Assembly: GCA_024277815.1 (NCBI GenBank)
Contig: JAJRUM010000056.1
Location: 19,592 to 83,591, forward strand
Origin: Gammaproteobacteria bacterium
GTDB lineage: Bacteria; Pseudomonadota; Gammaproteobacteria; Xanthomonadales; SZUA-36
DNA length: 64,000 bases
Direction: 5' to 3'
How positions within the stretch are numbered: position 1 is the stretch's first letter; the number at the start of each line of letters is the position of its first letter. Shown piece after piece: positions 3,088 to 30,903 of this stretch. The notes under the pieces are model-generated. The model saw only the letters and a program-made list of their open reading frames with translations, was not told where the DNA came from and did not search any database. A program made the position numbers and the translations under genes.

Positions 3088-3217
3088 AGGATATCCTCGT
3101 ATTTATGTGGCTACGAACCTCCCGGAATGGGTGCGAACGTTAGCAAATTCATTTTCCCCGAAGTCAGGTTGGTAATCAAACCCTTTCACGACCCACGCAG
3201 AAACCGGCTGCCTGCCC

Positions 3218-3223
3218 TATAAT
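3218..3223 (+). promoter_or_regulatory. Candidate -10 hexamer (TATAAT) for the ABC-F gene
   Basis: A perfect TATAAT lies 25 nt upstream of the ATG at 3248, followed by an AAGGA Shine-Dalgarno at 3235-3239. I found no convincing -35 element. Confidence 0.25.
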
Positions 3224-3247
3224 GCTTTTCCCTGAAGGAACACGAAG

Positions 3248-5167
3248 ATGCTGCAATTCAACCAAATTGAACTCCGCCGGGGTACCAAGCTGTTATTTGA
3301 AAACGCCTCCATGCAGGCGCACGCAGGACAGCGTACCGGCATCATTGGTGTCAATGGCAGCGGCAAAAGCTCGCTATTCTCTTTGCTGCTTGGTGAGCTC
3401 GAAAGTGATGCTGGTGAGCTGCAGGTCAACCCGAAAGATGTTATTGCCCATGTGGCACAGGAAAGCCCCTCCACTTCCCGGGCTGCATTGGAGTTTGTGG
3501 TAGACGGCGATCACGGCCTGCGGGCTCTGCAACAGGAAATTGCCACGCTTGAGGAAGCGGGCGAACATAACAACCGGCTCCATCGCCTCTACGAGCAAAT
3601 GGATGACATCGATGGCTACACGGCCGAAACACGGGCCGCGAGGTTATTGCACGGCCTGGGTTTCGCTGCAGCGGACGTACAAAACCCTGTCAATGAATTT
3701 TCAGGTGGCTGGCGCATGCGCCTGAATCTGGCCCAGGCCTTGATGTGCCGTTCCGATATTCTGTTACTGGATGAACCCACCAACCACCTGGATCTGTCCA
3801 CCATTGTCTGGCTGGAACGCTGGCTGAAGTCCTACCGCGGCATCCTGTTACTGATCTCCCATGACCGGGATTTTCTCGATGGCCTGTGCACACATATTGC
3901 ACATATAGAGCAGCAATCTGTAAAAACATACACCGGTAACTACAGCCAGTTTGAAGCTATTCGGGCTGAGAAACTGGCTCTACAACAGTCTATGTATACA
4001 AAACAACAGCGTGAAATCAAACATATACAGAGCTTTGTTGACAGGTTCCGTTACAAAGCTACCAAGGCGAGGCAGGCCCAAAGCAGACTGAAAATGCTGG
4101 AAAAAATGACCCGGATCGCACCGGCCCACGTGGATTCCAACTTCCACTTCCAGTTTGAACAACCTGATAAGCAGCCACAGCAGCTTATCCAGTTGGAAGG
4201 TGTGAGCATTGGCTATGGTGATACTGCCATTGTCGAGCAAATCCGTTTCCGGATCGGGGCGGGTGACCGAATCGGTTTACTGGGCGCCAATGGCGCGGGC
4301 AAATCAACGCTGGTCAAGACACTGCTAGATGGCAGCACCCTGCTTGGCGGCAAGCGGACTTTACACAAGCACACTCACATGGGGTATTTTGCTCAACACC
4401 AGCTTGAATTGTTGCGTATGGACTGTAGCCCGTTATGGCACGTACAGCAGTTGGCAGCCGACAGCAGGGAACAGGAGTTGCGTAGTCACCTCGGCCATTT
4501 TGGCTTTCGTGGTGAACGTGTCGAAGAGCCGGTTGCACCGTTTTCTGGCGGTGAAAAGGCGCGGCTTGTACTGGCGCTGCTGGTGTTGCAGAAACCCAAC
4601 CTGTTGTTGCTGGATGAACCAACCAACCACCTCGACCTGGAGATGCGCCACGCATTGAGCATGGCACTGGTCGAGTACAGCGGCGCGTTGCTGGTTATTT
4701 CACACGACCGCCATCTGCTACGCAGTGTTTGCGACGAACTTTACATCGTGCATGACGGCCGCCTTATCGAATTCAGGCAGTCCATTGATGATTACCCGGG
4801 CTGGCTCAGGTCTCAGGAGACCAGTGATGCTGATAGTACCGCTGTGTCTCAGCAGGATACCAGCTCAGCAGCAAGTCAACTTAACAAGAAACAGAACCGC
4901 CAGGCGGAGGCCAAGCGCCGGCAACAGCTGAAACCCCACAGGGACAAGGTTCGCAACATCGAAAAGCGTATGCAAAAGCACCGTTCTGAACTGTCAGATC
5001 TGGACGCAAGCCTGCATGATGAATCGCTGTACACGGACGCTGCGCGAAAAGAAGAAATGACCCAACTGTTACAAATGCAGGCAACATTAAAATCGGCGCT
5101 GGAAGCGCTCGAGTGGGAATGGCTGGAAGCCAGCGAAGCCCTTGAGGAAGCCAGCGAGGAACTCTAA
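3248..5167 (+). CDS. yheS: ABC-F family ATPase (YheS-like translation factor)
   Basis: 639 aa with two ABC cassettes (GVNGSGKST..LSGGWRMRLNLAQAL..LLLDEPTNHLD and GANGAGKSTL..FSGGEKARLVLA..LLLDEPTNHLD), no TM domain and a charged coiled-coil tail. It appears collinear with E. coli YheS as I remember it. Confidence 0.8.
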   Translation: MLQFNQIELRRGTKLLFENASMQAHAGQRTGIIGVNGSGKSSLFSLLLGELESDAGELQVNPKDVIAHVAQESPSTSRAALEFVVDGDHGLRALQQEIATLEEAGEHNNRLHRLYEQMDDIDGYTAETRAARLLHGLGFAAADVQNPVNEFSGGWRMRLNLAQALMCRSDILLLDEPTNHLDLSTIVWLERWLKSYRGILLLISHDRDFLDGLCTHIAHIEQQSVKTYTGNYSQFEAIRAEKLALQQSMYTKQQREIKHIQSFVDRFRYKATKARQAQSRLKMLEKMTRIAPAHVDSNFHFQFEQPDKQPQQLIQLEGVSIGYGDTAIVEQIRFRIGAGDRIGLLGANGAGKSTLVKTLLDGSTLLGGKRTLHKHTHMGYFAQHQLELLRMDCSPLWHVQQLAADSREQELRSHLGHFGFRGERVEEPVAPFSGGEKARLVLALLVLQKPNLLLLDEPTNHLDLEMRHALSMALVEYSGALLVISHDRHLLRSVCDELYIVHDGRLIEFRQSIDDYPGWLRSQETSDADSTAVSQQDTSSAASQLNKKQNRQAEAKRRQQLKPHRDKVRNIEKRMQKHRSELSDLDASLHDESLYTDAARKEEMTQLLQMQATLKSALEALEWEWLEASEALEEASEEL

Positions 5168-5173
5168 AGCACC

Positions 5174-7558
5174 CTACTCACCGTAAGGTATCCAGATATT
5201 CTTGATTTCAGTCGCCTTGCGCAGAAAAACCTCACCCTCGCCCTGCTGCGAATCTTCCCAGTCATGAAAACGGCCATAATTGACCCAGGTCCGCTTCATG
5301 GTAGCGGCCGCCTCGGTTTCTACCAGTTGACTGCCTTCCGCCGTACCCCAATACCACAGGCCTTCGATATCGTAGTGGCCAGCCAGCTCAGCAGTCAGCT
5401 CCTGCTGGTCGCCGGTAATGATGTTGATGACGCCGCCAGGTAAGTCAGAGGTATCCAGCACCTGGTAAAAGTCAGTGGCCAGCAGCGCATATTGCTGCGA
5501 TGGCACGACCACCACCCGGTTGCCCATGGCAATGGCCGGCATGATGGTTGACAGCAGGCCCAGCAGGCCGGCTTCTGGCGGCGCTACAATGCCGATGACG
5601 CCGAGGGCCTCTTTCATGGCCAGCGTGACGTTACGAAACGGTGTCGAATGTACCTGGCTGTCGTACTTGTCTGTCATTGCCGCATAGGTATAAATGCGCT
5701 CGATGCACAGTGCTAGTTCCGCACCCGCACCCGCTTCGTCCTTACCACTCAGTTGCGCAATACGGCGCGTGAACTCTGCACCGCGAGCTTCGAGGTTCTC
5801 AGCGATAAAATACAGCACCTGAGCACGATTATGCGCTGTGGTCAGCGTCCAGCCTTCCGCCTTGCAGGCAGCCTCGACTGCGTCGCGAATATCTTTTCGC
5901 GCACCCTTTGGGTATTCGGCCACTACCCTGCCCGCCGCATCATAGGCCTGCAGGCTGTACCCGCCATCAGGCCTGACCTGCCTGCCACCGATATAAAGCT
6001 TTGCGGTACGGTCGATGGAAACAGCGGTTGATTGTTTTTCGGTGGGTGATGCCCCCGATAGCGGATAAACAGCCTGGGCGTGCAAGGCAGTCTCCCAATC
6101 CGCTTTCAGGTATTCATACAGGCCTTCCCTGCCACCTTCGCGGCCAAAGCCTGATTCCCGGTAACCACCGAAGCCCGCTGCCGCATCAAAGGCATTGGTG
6201 CAGTTTATCCATACTGAGCCAGCCTTGAGTTTCGGCGCCACATCCAGCGCCAGGTTAATATTCTCTGTCCAGACACTCGCAGCCAGCCCGTAACGGCTGT
6301 TGTTGGCCAATGCGACCGCTTCGGCCGGCGTACGGAAGGTCATGGCAACCAGTACCGGGCCAAAAATCTCTTCCTGCGCCAGCGTTGAAGCGGGCTGAAC
6401 ATCAGTAATCAGGGTTGGCGGATAGAAACAGCCATTTTCCGGCAGCTTACAATCCGGTTGCCACACCTCACCACCCTCTTGTGCACCGAGCCGGACCAGG
6501 TCAGTGATGGTTTGTAACTGCACCGGATCAACAACAGCACCCATATCGATACCCTTGTCGAGTGAATCCCCGACCACCAGTTTCGCCATACGTACTTTGA
6601 CTTTCTCCAGCAGCGTGGCCGCCACTGATTCCTGCACCAGCAAGCGTGAACCGGCACAGCAGACCTGCCCCTGGTTAAACCAGATCGCATCCACCAGGCC
6701 CTCAACCACACTGTCGAGGTCAGCGTCTTCGTAAACAATAAATGGCGATTTACCCCCCAGTTCCAGGGTCAGTTTTTTGCCCGTGCCCGCTGTCGCCTTA
6801 CGCAGTATCCGGCCAACCTCAGTCGAACCGGTGAAGGCAATCTTCTTCACTTCAGGGTGGGCAACCAGTGCCTGGCCGGCCTTGCCGTCACCCAACAGCA
6901 GGTTGAACACACCGGCAGGCAAACCGACCTCTGCACATATCTCTGCCAGCAAAACAGCTGTAGAAGAGGTGAATTCGGCGGGCTTCAATACCACCGTATT
7001 TCCCATGGCCAGCGCCGGAGCCACTTTCCAGGAAGCCATCAACAGCGGAAAATTCCACGGGATAATCTGACCCACCACACCCAAAGGCTGGAAGCCGGGT
7101 AGTTCACGGTCGCGGACCTGTGCCCAACCCGCGTGATAGTAAAAATGCCGCGCCACCAGCGGAATATCAATATCCCGTGATTCGCGAATCGGCTTGCCGT
7201 TATCGAGGCTTTCCAATACTGCGAACAAACGACTGTGCTTCTGCACCTGACGTGCAATGGCATACAGGTAGCGAGCACGCTGATGACCGCTTAGTGCCGC
7301 CCATCCGGGTGCGGCTTTTGATGCTGCTGCCACGGCGCGGTCGGTATCTTCCTGCGCGCCGTCTGCGACCTGTGCCAGCACCGCTCCCGTTGCGGGGTCG
7401 CGGGTTTCAAAAAATTCACCGCTGGCGGGTTGCTGCCACTGCCCACCGGCAAAGTGCAGCAGCTTGTTGTCGCGGGCCGCATACCATTGTTCTGCCATCG
7501 CAGTGCTTTCCGGTGCCTTGCCGTAGTCCATGCTGGCGAAAATTTCTTTGATGCTCAT
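5174..7558 (-). CDS. Two-domain aldehyde dehydrogenase (ALDH16-type: a full ALDH domain plus a truncated, non-catalytic ALDH-like domain)
   Basis: 794 aa. Residues ~1-490 form a complete ALDH with the catalytic Glu (LELGGKSP) and Cys (NQGQVCCAGSR). Residues ~500-794 repeat only the N-terminal/NAD-binding-like half (RAQVLYFIAENLE.., GVIGIVAP, GNRVVVVPS) and carry no catalytic Cys. Confidence 0.8.
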   Translation of the reverse strand: MSIKEIFASMDYGKAPESTAMAEQWYAARDNKLLHFAGGQWQQPASGEFFETRDPATGAVLAQVADGAQEDTDRAVAAASKAAPGWAALSGHQRARYLYAIARQVQKHSRLFAVLESLDNGKPIRESRDIDIPLVARHFYYHAGWAQVRDRELPGFQPLGVVGQIIPWNFPLLMASWKVAPALAMGNTVVLKPAEFTSSTAVLLAEICAEVGLPAGVFNLLLGDGKAGQALVAHPEVKKIAFTGSTEVGRILRKATAGTGKKLTLELGGKSPFIVYEDADLDSVVEGLVDAIWFNQGQVCCAGSRLLVQESVAATLLEKVKVRMAKLVVGDSLDKGIDMGAVVDPVQLQTITDLVRLGAQEGGEVWQPDCKLPENGCFYPPTLITDVQPASTLAQEEIFGPVLVAMTFRTPAEAVALANNSRYGLAASVWTENINLALDVAPKLKAGSVWINCTNAFDAAAGFGGYRESGFGREGGREGLYEYLKADWETALHAQAVYPLSGASPTEKQSTAVSIDRTAKLYIGGRQVRPDGGYSLQAYDAAGRVVAEYPKGARKDIRDAVEAACKAEGWTLTTAHNRAQVLYFIAENLEARGAEFTRRIAQLSGKDEAGAGAELALCIERIYTYAAMTDKYDSQVHSTPFRNVTLAMKEALGVIGIVAPPEAGLLGLLSTIMPAIAMGNRVVVVPSQQYALLATDFYQVLDTSDLPGGVINIITGDQQELTAELAGHYDIEGLWYWGTAEGSQLVETEAAATMKRTWVNYGRFHDWEDSQQGEGEVFLRKATEIKNIWIPYGE

Positions 7559-28345: not shown

Positions 28346-30151
28346 ATGCGCTTCAAGGCATTTATCATCACCCTTCTTCTCACCACACTGGCCGCCTGTG
28401 CTGTCGATGACAATGAGCAACAGGTATCCAGGCTTGAGCCGGAAAAACACCGGCCGGAAGTTCTGAGTGAAGTACTTCCACCGGCCACTGTCGGCCAGAC
28501 CGGCACTTCAACGGCGGACCGCTCCGCTCTGCCGGCTGTTGCTGAAATGGATAAAGTTGAAATCAGGGCACGCACCAGAGGCGATTCGATGCTGAAGTAT
28601 GTGGACTACTCGGCAATGCCCACAGCCTCACTTGCAGTAGCTGGCATTCAACCCAACATACGCCCCGCATCTGAACCGCTATACCGTGAAAACTATCAAC
28701 ACTTCGACAGCCAACGGGTCACCCGGGTTAGCAGTAACCCTGTATCGACGTTCTCTATCGATGTTGACACCGGCGCCTACACCAACATGCGCCGCTGGCT
28801 GAACCAGGGCCAGTTGCCGCCGGAAGATGCTGTCCGGGTTGAAGAGTTAATCAACTATTTTGACTACGACTACCCGTTTCCAGAAAATACCAAGACACCT
28901 TTTCAGGTCAGCACAGAAGTTGCGCCAACACCCTGGAACACCAACACACGCCTACTGCGCATTGGTATCCAGGGCTATCAGGTCACGAAATCAAAGTTGC
29001 CCGCTTCGAACCTGGTCTTTCTGATTGATGTCTCCGGCTCAATGAGTTCAACCGATAAATTACCATTATTGCAGCAGGCTCTGACCATGTTGACCAATGA
29101 ACTGGATGGCCAAGACCGAATCAGCATGGTTGTTTATGCCGGTGCATCAGGTGTCGTTCTGCCGCCCACAACCGGTGACCAAAAAGCCACTATCCTGATG
29201 GCTCTTCAGCAGTTGCAGGCCGGGGGATCTACCAATGGCGCGGCGGGCATTCGCCTGGCCTACCAGATGGCGCAGCAGGGCTTCATCCCCGGTGGCATCA
29301 ACCGGGTTATCCTCGCCACCGACGGCGACTTCAACGTTGGCCTGGCCAGCACCGAAGAGCTGATCGACCTGATCCAGCGCCAGCGCAAGGCCGGTATCGC
29401 CCTGACCACGCTGGGCTTTGGCAGCGGCAATTACAACGATCACCTGATGGAACAACTGGCAGATGAAGGCGATGGTAACTACGCCTATATAGACCGGCTC
29501 GGTGAGGCCCGCAAAGTGCTGTCTGAAGAACTTTCCTCAACCTTGTTGACGATCGCCAAAGACGTCAAGATCCAGGTTGAGTTCAACCCCGCCCGGGTTT
29601 CCGAATATCGCCTGATCGGATACGAAAATCGAAAATTGAATGAGGAAGATTTTGCCAACGATAAAGTTGATGCCGGTGAAATCGGTGCCGGACACCGGGT
29701 TACCGCACTGTATGAAATCAGCCTGGTCGGCAGCAAGGGCCAGCGCCTGCCACCGCGACGTTACCAGAACCAGACGCCTGGCAATAAATCTGTTGACGGG
29801 TCTTTTGGCCAGGAACTCGCACACCTGCGTATCCGCTATAAGCTTCCCACTGAGTCTGTCTCCAAGCTGATCGAAACACCCATTGTTGACAGTGGCAACA
29901 AAACCCACGCCAGTGACAGCTTTAATTTTGCGGCATCGGTCGCCGCTTTTGGGCAGAAATTGCGCGGTGGCACCTACCTTGAAGCCTTCAGCTACGATGA
30001 CATCGCCAAACTGGCCCGCCAGTCCAGGGGTGATGATGCGCACGGTTACCGCAGTGAATTTATGCAACTGGTTGGCCTGGCTGATACGCTGGATAAATCA
30101 AGCCCGATGGCTGTACGCCAAGTGACTGCCCGGCCGGTTGGTACCCCTTGA
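28346..30151 (+). CDS. von Willebrand factor A domain lipoprotein (YfbK-like: N-terminal vWA-associated region, VWA domain, C-terminal domain)
   Basis: 601 aa with a lipobox (LLTTLAAC). STFSIDVDTGAYTNMRR, the MIDAS motif LIDVSGSMSS and ILATDGDFNVG are present. It is preceded by an AGGAG Shine-Dalgarno. Confidence 0.8.
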   Translation: MRFKAFIITLLLTTLAACAVDDNEQQVSRLEPEKHRPEVLSEVLPPATVGQTGTSTADRSALPAVAEMDKVEIRARTRGDSMLKYVDYSAMPTASLAVAGIQPNIRPASEPLYRENYQHFDSQRVTRVSSNPVSTFSIDVDTGAYTNMRRWLNQGQLPPEDAVRVEELINYFDYDYPFPENTKTPFQVSTEVAPTPWNTNTRLLRIGIQGYQVTKSKLPASNLVFLIDVSGSMSSTDKLPLLQQALTMLTNELDGQDRISMVVYAGASGVVLPPTTGDQKATILMALQQLQAGGSTNGAAGIRLAYQMAQQGFIPGGINRVILATDGDFNVGLASTEELIDLIQRQRKAGIALTTLGFGSGNYNDHLMEQLADEGDGNYAYIDRLGEARKVLSEELSSTLLTIAKDVKIQVEFNPARVSEYRLIGYENRKLNEEDFANDKVDAGEIGAGHRVTALYEISLVGSKGQRLPPRRYQNQTPGNKSVDGSFGQELAHLRIRYKLPTESVSKLIETPIVDSGNKTHASDSFNFAASVAAFGQKLRGGTYLEAFSYDDIAKLARQSRGDDAHGYRSEFMQLVGLADTLDKSSPMAVRQVTARPVGTP

Positions 30152-30155
30152 ATAC

Positions 30156-30308
30156 GCGGGGGTATGGGTGCTCTCCGGTGAGACACGCCGCGAGTACCTC
30201 CGTGTAGGCTCTGAAAAAACCTGGCCCAGGCCAGCCTCTCGACCAGCACGCTGGTCTCACCTTCTCCCTGTTTTTTAAGGTCTCACCGGAGAGCACCCAC
30301 ACCCCCGC
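30156..30308. repeat. 153-bp element bounded by 29-bp near-perfect inverted repeats (MITE-like or structured RNA)
   Basis: gcgggggtatgggtgctctccggtgagac (30156-30184) is the reverse complement of gtctcaccggagagcacccacacccccgc (30280-30308), matching at 28 of 29 positions. The 95-nt spacer contains two further short hairpins, an A6/T6 run and a partial third copy (ggtctcacc, 30253-30261). Confidence 0.8.
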
Positions 30309-30372
30309 TCAGCGTGTGCCTTCATATGCAAGAGTGCTTGGCGCATCGATCCGAATCCGCTACGCTGAGCGG

Positions 30373-30903
30373 ATGCGGGAGACAACTGACGAATACCTGA
30401 TGCAGCAATATGCACGTGGCAATGTACAGGCTTTCGATCAGCTCTATGCCCGGCATCGTGGTGCGCTCTATCGCTATTTCAGGCGCCAGATTACTGATGA
30501 AGCCACCGCCAATGATCTTTACCAGGGCGTGTGGGAGAAAATTATAAGGGCCAGACGTAAATACCGTACGTCTACACCCTTCACAGCATGGATGTTCCGC
30601 ATCGCCCACAACCACCTGGTCGACCATTACCGACGTCAAAAACCACAGGCCGCGGTAGATACAGACAGACTGGTTGACCTGCAGCCGGAGCCTGCGCAAC
30701 AGCACATTGACGGACAACAACGGCAACAATTGCAAGCAGGCATCGTAGCCTTGCCGGATGAACAGAGGGATACACTGCTGCTGAAACTTGAAAGCGGGCT
30801 GAAAATAGAGGAAATTGCTGTTGTTACCGGGGTCAGCGCGGACACGGTCAAAAGTCGCCTGCGCTACGCGGTCAACAAACTTAAACGGAGTCTGGTTGAA
30901 TGA
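30373..30903 (+). CDS. ECF-type RNA polymerase sigma factor
   Basis: The start is set at ATG 30373 (MRETTDEYLMQQYARGNVQAFDQLYARH). The region 2 motif FTAWMFRIAHNHLVDHYR and a region 4 HTH (EEIAVVTGVSADTVKSRLRYA) are present. Its stop overlaps the next gene's start (ATGA). Confidence 0.88.
   Translation: MRETTDEYLMQQYARGNVQAFDQLYARHRGALYRYFRRQITDEATANDLYQGVWEKIIRARRKYRTSTPFTAWMFRIAHNHLVDHYRRQKPQAAVDTDRLVDLQPEPAQQHIDGQQRQQLQAGIVALPDEQRDTLLLKLESGLKIEEIAVVTGVSADTVKSRLRYAVNKLKRSLVE

Follow-up and report, generated by a model that had tools for sequence, protein, structure and literature searches.

A 153-bp unit bounded by long inverted repeats (positions 30156-30308) separates the gene for a VWA-domain protein from an extracytoplasmic function (ECF) sigma factor operon in the window analysed here, a 64,000-nt stretch of a gammaproteobacterial genome (assembly GCA_024277815.1, contig JAJRUM010000056.1). 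The best explanation, to which a probability of about 0.8 can be attached, is that this unit is a copy of a YPAL/RU-2-type hairpin repeat, intergenic and non-autonomous, that carries a second repeat, module B, nested within it, and not a switch dedicated to the sigma genes. The unit belongs to a multicopy family, its fold is that of the family and is accompanied by covariation of the paired positions, it holds an insert that most sister copies lack, and at the orthologous site in related genomes the element is present in some and missing from others. For the locus itself this reading is deflationary, as the sigma/anti-sigma operon would not be under the control of a new RNA switch and would simply sit downstream of an ornate but ordinary mobile hairpin repeat.

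To our knowledge, published accounts of the YPAL/RU-2 repeat are confined to Yersinia and Erwinia, and the repeat is filed in Rfam as a small RNA (sRNA). Of the gammaproteobacterial families sampled here, about one in five has now been seen to contain repeats of this type, and the repeat family is notable in that its arms change completely yet stay paired, with two loops that are almost invariant. The specific targeting of these loops by module B suggests an as yet unexplained way of integrating into hairpin loops. For annotators, matches that resemble Ysr224 are better treated as repeats than as sRNA genes.

Family copies and the nested module

The two arms of the unit, 29 nt each, are paired at 28 of 29 positions (97% complementary) across a spacer of 95 nt, exactly as the initial annotation had described. 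With up to 3 mismatches allowed, the arm sequence occurs at two sites only in the whole window; 100 shuffled sequences give an expectation of 0 matches, and chance would not be expected to produce such a pair. The folding energy of the whole unit is -88.5 kcal/mol on the plus strand (z = -8.4) and -98.9 kcal/mol on the minus strand (z = -7.8). In the minimum-energy fold the full 29-nt arms are paired with each other, and the alternative pairing of the left arm with an internal segment is not used.

A BLAST search of the 153 bp against its own 2.98-Mb assembly returned many partial matches, so that the unit is multicopy, and an iterated nhmmer profile resolved these into 19 full copies and 1 partial copy, all of them intergenic and 11 of the 20 lying between convergent genes. 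The copies occur as singles, inverted pairs and clusters, and the canonical copy is ~117 nt long (114-118 nt). The copy in the window, G000:C38:49746-49903 in the assembly, scores 94.1 bits (E = 4.8e-22).

From the outside inwards, the family plan, seen when copies are aligned in register, begins with a basal stem CGCGGCGACAYGGGG / CCCCRTATCCCCGC, which is followed by a stem segment of 10-12 bp that is copy-specific yet complementary, and by GAGAC/GTCTC. Thereafter come a conserved ACGCCGTGAA, a small hairpin P2 that reads TAC-RTCCMT-GTA or CCC-TTCCCT-GGG, the linker GCTCGG, a second hairpin P3 with the loop (A)TCCCT, and ACG. The stem of P3 is swapped among copies (AAAAAAC/GTTTTTT, GGCCTGC/GCAGGCC, AGCCAAC/GTTGGCT and others), with compensation always kept, and the loops of P2 and P3 both read C-R-TCC-N-T-G. 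The architecture is thus that of a long stem, P1, whose arms vary yet stay complementary, and whose cap is a conserved three-way junction with P2 and P3. When 28 copies were aligned with module B removed, RNAalifold predicted 39 pairs, and compensatory double changes were seen in 32 of these. Across 104 distinct rows, 94.9% of the cells are paired, versus 59% when shuffled and 36-46% when the partners are slid, and double-sided changes are found at 38 of the 39 pairs.

Against this plan the window copy departs in its left end. The basal part of its P1 5' arm, GCGGGGGTATGGG, is atypical, the family norm being CGCGGCGACAYGGGG, and it equals the reverse complement of a family right end; the left basal arm has thus become symmetrical with the right arm, which explains the near-perfect 28/29 arm match of this copy. 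Its P3 stem, in which GAAAAAAC (30213-30220) pairs with GTTTTTT(A) (30270-30277), is conserved in the family and had been overlooked by the initial annotation, which had recorded the T6 run at 30271-30276 that is now seen to be the P3 3' arm.

One further copy in the same assembly, G000:C75:19707-19821, is chimeric: its left half and left flank are those of the neighbouring inverted copy C75:19938-20052, and its right arm is the arm of copy C10:14620-14726, which is evidence for recombination between family copies.

By BLAST, the family was found in 22 of 24 congeners. A covariance model, R1, built from the 28-copy alignment without module B, gave matches over the full length and extended it to 17/17 sampled genomes of the taxonomic family and to 37/151 of the order, including 12/18 and 6/15 genomes of two other families, many of which have 65-74% GC and at least 24 copies. 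When one genome per family was sampled across Gammaproteobacteria, a covariance model found members in 33 of 150 families. Beyond the genus, the arm sequences show no relationship and are in many cases perfectly paired for 20-29 bp, and the core is still recognisable.

A search of plasmids gave 3 weak matches only, two of them on alphaproteobacterial plasmids; the family core lies on the conjugative plasmids NZ_KU922118.1 (21431-21486) and NZ_KU922121.1 (Ancylobacter, Xanthobacter) and on the Marinobacter plasmid NC_017507.1, and these three plasmids are possible vehicles of horizontal spread. In a congener, tandem arrays were observed at L072 1803-2833, L228 (G011:C3) 3114-4244 and L229 (G011:C7) 4359-5234, with 4-5 family copies each, a period of 255 nt and an identity of 97%, one of them sitting immediately upstream of the orthologous VWA gene. 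Because the 255-nt period is divisible by 3, it opens a 364-aa frame that is probably spurious.

Module B of the window copy comprises two units, TGGCCCAGGCCAGCCTCTCGACCAGCACGCTGG (33 nt) and TCTCACCTTC (10 nt), and its insertion point is in the P3 loop, between CA (CC in the window copy) and TCCCTG. It is missing from 13 of the 19 copies of the same genome and present in six at the identical position in the loop of a small hairpin; these six filled copies, the window copy included, carry an extra 42-47 nt, four in P3 and two in P2. Both internal hairpins to which the initial annotation had drawn attention, ctggcc-ca-ggccag at 30221-30234 and gaccag-cacg-ctggtc at 30241-30256, are indeed present, as is the second ggtctcacc at 30253-30261 that it had called a third copy, and all three lie in module B, which it had not recognised as a separate insert. 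The elements that had suggested a switch are therefore all parts either of module B or of the P3 stem.

Beyond the assembly, the 18-nt core of module B occurs in 37 of 94 genomes of the taxonomic family, with up to ~38 copies per genome, against ~0 for a reversed control pattern. Elsewhere the module consists of a 32-33-nt unit present one to three times and of the 10-nt unit present one to seven times, and it also occurs alone. At 35 distinct insertion sites, the left flank ends in CA in 20 and the right flank starts with TCC or CCC in 31, and the flanks themselves form short hairpins. At one locus, L225, filled and empty repeat units are adjacent (GCACA^TCCCTGTGC versus GCACA-B-TCCTTGTGC). 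Given the constant flanks at the 35 sites and these filled and empty neighbours, module B homes in fixed orientation into CA^TCCNTG loops, the motif of P2 and P3.

Several observations touch on these insertions. At the contig ends holding L224 and L225 (G019:C48, C52), there is another tandem unit of ~95 nt (…GCGCCGCACATCCCTGTGCTCTATCGCGATATACCGCAC…) with a CATCCNTG hairpin loop, which is a module B target. Micro-arrays of module B, composed of three 32-nt units and three to seven 10-nt units, were seen at L223 (G013:C69:10150-10600), L221, L222 and L226. The L223 array appears within a kinase-like reading frame on the opposite strand (its flanks translate as ...HGDLKSKSN...), and by analogy with the RPEs of Rickettsia it could be an in-frame intragenic insertion. 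Different inserts of 40-80 nt are present at the P2/P3 loops of the family copies at L033 21-190, L148 1127-1309, L029 359-523 and L149 1302-1465, and from these sequences the two loops appear to be general hot spots of nested insertion.

Relation to YPAL/RU-2, Ysr224 and other repeats

YPAL was reportedly described in Yersinia by De Gregorio et al. 2006, J Bacteriol 188:7876. The related RU-2 sequence, taken from Delihas 2007 (PMC2759123, Table 1b), matches the core of the present family in its reverse complement, at 22/27 nt in the window copy, 25/28 in copy C74:2680-2796 and 26/27 in a congeneric copy, whereas its direct strand gives background scores only in local alignment. RU-2 also folds alike, as a long stem with two small hairpins. 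YPAL is an abundant, intergenic repeat of ~168 bp whose inverted repeats are internal and not terminal, with target duplications of 3-26 bp and insertion at or beside dyad symmetries; it shares transcripts with the genes upstream of it and may influence the stability of mRNA (Delihas review, PMC2229807), and an RNAz P of 1.00 has been reported for it (PMC2267715).

The likeness extends over the common core ACGCCGTRAATACATCCATGTAGGCTCG...CATCCNTG...ACG (up to 26/27 nt), the long hairpin with internal inverted repeats and a two-hairpin cap, and the habit of a multicopy, intergenic repeat that is not AT-rich, adjoins gene ends and is polymorphic between genomes. The differences are equally clear. 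YPAL measures 167-169 bp, against 114-118 nt for the canonical copies here, and the window copy reaches 153-158 nt only because of its 43-nt module B, so that the two do not agree in length. Furthermore, the arms are unrelated to those of Yersinia and many copies in the genus add the basal stem, the window copy has a nested second repeat, and the host is an uncultured relative of Wenzhouxiangellaceae/Xanthomonadales, far from Enterobacterales. Taken together, these points make the window element a shorter, distant member of the YPAL/RU-2 kind.

A second link leads to the Rfam family RF02770 (Ysr224, 'Yersinia sRNA 224'), whose consensus contains the family core on the strand of the window copy, and which is matched by five distant family members at 31-37 bits (E 1e-4 to 3e-3; gathering score 70). 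In Rfam Ysr224 has the status of an sRNA gene, in contrast to the dispersed repeat seen here, and it was among the most abundantly annotated 'sRNAs' in a survey (PMC9029176). The initial annotation had placed the unit in no RNA family, and no Rfam family reaches its threshold for the window copy; the matches returned for the window and canonical copies were chance hairpins of miRNA precursors only and were rejected. In addition, the GC-rich family members match neither sX9 nor other Xanthomonas sRNA families in Rfam.

Other classes of repeat resemble the family less closely. ERIC/IRU, Correia/NEMIS and other miniature inverted-repeat transposable elements (MITEs) are likewise small, non-coding, intergenic repeats that form long hairpins when transcribed, and ERIC and NEMIS have been shown to influence the stability of mRNA or its processing by RNase III/E (summarised in PMC2229807). 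However, ERIC/IRU and Correia/NEMIS have conserved terminal inverted repeats and TA target duplications, whereas the present family is conserved in its centre and variable at its termini. REP/BIME and REPIN-RAYT elements share with the family the intergenic palindromes, the arrangement in inverted pairs and clusters, and the position downstream of genes, but REPs are 20-40 bp long, with conserved stems, a GTAG/CGTC tag and linkage to RAYT, none of which features is seen here. An integron attC site was rejected, as the ends lack the core sites R''/R' (RYYYAAC/GTTRRRY) and the neighbours are ordinary housekeeping genes.

The VWA-sigma spacer, mobilisation and rival explanations

The synteny from the VWA gene to the sigma gene is kept in the genus and beyond, which makes the spacer comparable among relatives. 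Among 20 congeneric spacers of 47-270 nt, the full element is found in three, all inverted relative to the window copy, reduced or decayed versions in four, and plain GC-rich hairpins, several of them followed by T-runs, in the remaining 13. As the spacers of relatives hold terminator-type hairpins, the element occupies the terminator zone of the VWA gene. Upstream of the sigma gene, (A)CTTGGCG-N17-GCTACGCTGC-N4-ATG is kept in the majority of the 20 spacers and also among more distant relatives, including the closest ones outside the sample, whether the element is there or not; in the window this promoter-like block ends 6 nt before the sigma ATG. A strict sigma-70 scan did not call the block, which matches at 8 of 12 positions, and we infer from its conservation that it acts as the promoter of the sigma operon. 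Since the position and orientation of the element are not conserved and the sigma operon has its own upstream signal, these spacers speak against a switch dedicated to read-through. Between the block and the sigma ATG there is no Shine-Dalgarno sequence, and relatives conserve the ACTT motif just upstream; possibly the mRNA of the ECF sigma factor is leaderless, or else the block is an ECF promoter under autoregulation.

The alternative offered by the initial annotation of a MITE/REP-like mobile repeat is supported by the copies in the genome, the wide distribution, the filled and empty orthologous spacers, and the core homology with YPAL/RU-2. On this explanation, the window copy would have been placed in the 3' flank of the VWA gene, where relatives carry an ordinary terminator hairpin, and would have undergone two secondary changes, namely the symmetrisation of its left basal arm and the insertion of the unrelated module B into its P3 loop. 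The element would be co-transcribed with the VWA gene as a very stable hairpin in the 3' untranslated region (3' UTR), which may end or stabilise the VWA transcript or be processed out of it, the 29-bp duplex being of sufficient length for RNase III, and the sigma operon would start from its own conserved promoter-like block. Because module B and other inserts lie in loops and YPAL targets lie at dyads, integration into pre-existing hairpins is an attractive origin for arms that vary and yet are paired. Sub-families in the genus share arms and flanks, and many copies share the outer conserved stem, which indicates that whole-unit duplication followed by compensated drift also occurs.

Several points weigh against this explanation. 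At the window copy no target-site duplication is visible, the closest genomes are too diverged (sigma protein only 62-75% identical) to provide a precise empty site, and no obvious direct repeats flank the copies of its own genome when these are aligned in register. No autonomous partner or transposase was found, the sole Y1 (RAYT-like) gene being flanked by a different inverted repeat. The window copy has no match to Ysr224 at E <= 10, and the canonical copies of its genome have none at E <= 1; membership of the known kind rests on core homology together with transitive evidence from the covariance model. Finally, the extreme conservation of the loops and a bias in orientation suggest a function beyond selfish spread.

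Such a function is the subject of the rival that survives best, which we nevertheless regard as rather unlikely. It holds that the element is a mobile docking module for CsrA/RsmA on the strand opposite to Ysr224, on which the P2 and P3 loops read C-A-N-GGA-N-G and would be bridged by one dimer, with the consequence that transcripts of the GGA strand would be bound by CsrA and thereby regulated, or would titrate CsrA. The consensus RUACARGGAUGU, obtained for CsrA by systematic evolution of ligands by exponential enrichment, in which ACA and GGA are invariant and GGA lies in a hairpin loop (PMC4347634), is matched by the opposite-strand loops. Counted over 101 copies from ~69 loci, the opposite-strand loop CANGGANG is found in 90/98 P2 and 84/99 P3 hairpins, and GGA in 96/98 and 96/99, most of the variation falling on the two Ns. 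There is a csrA gene, and short hairpins with A(N)GGA in their loops, at least two such sites being within the reach of a dimer, are found only on the strand opposite to Ysr224.

Orientation tells against this docking role. The UCC strand is sense to the nearest upstream gene (within 200 nt) in 51 cases versus 20 for the GGA strand, or 38 versus 17 when one copy per locus is counted, on crude open reading frame calls; the window copy is itself in the UCC-sense orientation, its GGA strand being the minus strand and antisense to the VWA gene, and Rfam models Ysr224 on the UCC strand. In the window copy, moreover, P2 reads CACGGAGG on the opposite strand, and module B divides the P3 loop. A pyrimidine stands at the second N in ~90% of the loops, an observation that an A-U or G.U pair closing the loop on the UCC strand would explain equally well, and the purine bias, confined to the loop-closing position, is ambiguous between such a closing pair and a preference for GGAY. 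In a test of G.U against A.C mismatches for the functional RNA strand, the long arms proved symmetric (G.T 40 versus A.C 50), as expected of a DNA palindrome and not of a one-strand RNA.

RNAs that derive from a 3' UTR and sequester RsmA are known in the same order, which speaks for such a role, an example being RsmU, a 117-nt RsmA-sequestering RNA from the comEA 3' UTR of Xanthomonas campestris (PMC7694677). CsrB, RsmY, RsmZ and RsmU resemble the family in having several GGA motifs in hairpin loops, RsmU also in its 3'-UTR origin, host order and length of 117 nt, but there is no sequence similarity, and the strand carrying the GGA loops is here usually antisense with respect to the upstream gene. 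RsmU was therefore rejected as a homologue, its ends, known from published primers (GACGCGAGGATGCGTGGCC... and ...GGATGTGCAGCCGGGCGTTTTTC), being unlike the family.

In a fuller version, to which still slightly less credence is given, the conserved tip would be a portable pair of putative CsrA/RsmA-binding hairpins, module B would home into CANGGA^TG, and the arms would come from loop integration into pre-existing hairpins. If this is true, insertions would wire transcripts into the Csr regulon, or the copies would jointly titrate CsrA. The congener arrays, if transcribed on the GGA strand, would display 8-10 CsrA-like hairpins, and these 4-5-unit tandem arrays would then act as CsrB-like sponges.

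Mobilisation by RAYT, a Y1 HUH transposase, as for a REP/REPIN-type repeat, is very improbable. It would account for an intergenic palindrome in inverted pairs and clusters, as in BIMEs, and one Y1_Tnp gene is present in the assembly, but this gene has its own unrelated 19-nt inverted repeat and its contig, C13, holds no copy of the family, no GTAG/CGTC tag is visible at the ends of the copies, and the variable arms and conserved centre are the opposite of what is seen in REPINs. The gene itself, a single RAYT-like Y1_Tnp locus of 229 aa at G000:C13:16018-16350 (L141 1468-2157) with the inverted repeat TTTGGGGTCAGAGTAAAAA / TTTTTACTCTGACCCCTAA, is probably a separate REP/RAYT system.

The other proposal of the initial annotation, a locus-specific RNA switch or processing site in which the left arm pairs either with 30253-30261 or with the right arm and so gates read-through from the VWA gene into the sigma/anti-sigma genes, can hardly be upheld: an alternative pairing of 8-9 nt does exist, the stem is very stable and the element lies between two co-directional transcription units, but the competing segment is module B, which is inserted at many unrelated sites and missing from most family copies, so that the 'mutually exclusive pairings' are by-products of nesting; the full 29-bp stem dominates the ensemble; 13 of 20 congeneric spacers lack the element and the only three full copies are inverted; the sigma gene retains its own conserved promoter-like block irrespective of the element; and Rfam gives no match to a riboswitch or leader family.

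Features of the window copy and its surroundings

The repeat, in the preferred reading as a YPAL/RU-2-type copy, and the adjoining block are laid out in Table 1.

Table 1. Positions of the parts of the repeat and of the promoter-like block in the window
Feature	Position	Strand	Basis
Whole match to the family model, 'forward' orientation (= Rfam Ysr224 strand)	30155-30312	+	nhmmer and covariance model
Long stem P1, 5' arm	30156-30184	+	Self-pairing; comparison with the 18 further full copies
Conserved core, 5' half: ACGCCGCGAG, then P2, then linker GCTCTG	30185-30213	+	Alignment, covariation
Small hairpin P2, GTAC-CTCCGT-GTAG, lengthened by GCC/GGC pairing	30194-30207	+	Alignment, covariation
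Hairpin P3, 5' arm AAAAAAC	30214-30220	+	Pairs with 30270-30276
Module B, nested 43-nt mini-repeat in the P3 loop	30222-30264	+	Presence/absence among copies; other genomes
Remaining P3 loop TCCCTG, P3 3' arm GTTTTTT and junction AAG	30265-30279	+	Family alignment, fold
Long stem P1, 3' arm	30280-30308	+	Self-pairing
Promoter-like block TTGGCG-N17-TACGCT, outside the repeat	30338-30366	+	Conservation

The flanking genes run in the same direction. Upstream lies a gene for a YfbK-type VWA protein (28346-30151; Pfam YfbK_C, vWF_A, VWA), with its TGA stop at 30149-30151, 5 nt downstream of which the 153-bp unit begins; downstream are the genes for the ECF sigma factor, with its ATG at 30373, 64 nt past the end of the unit, for a probable anti-sigma factor, which has no Pfam match, and for a YigZ/UPF0029 protein. 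A terminator scan found no intrinsic terminator on the plus strand, where the right arm is followed by TCAGCGTGTGCC. The single match of the scan is the minus-strand hairpin with a T-run that the initial annotation had also pointed out, a hairpin plus T6 built from the module B palindrome and the P3 arm. In the orthologous spacers L128, L130, L131, L133, L135, L137 and L139, hairpins of the form GTCATCCCCGC-loop-GCGGGGATGAC, often followed by T-runs, may represent another REP-like family that doubles as terminators.

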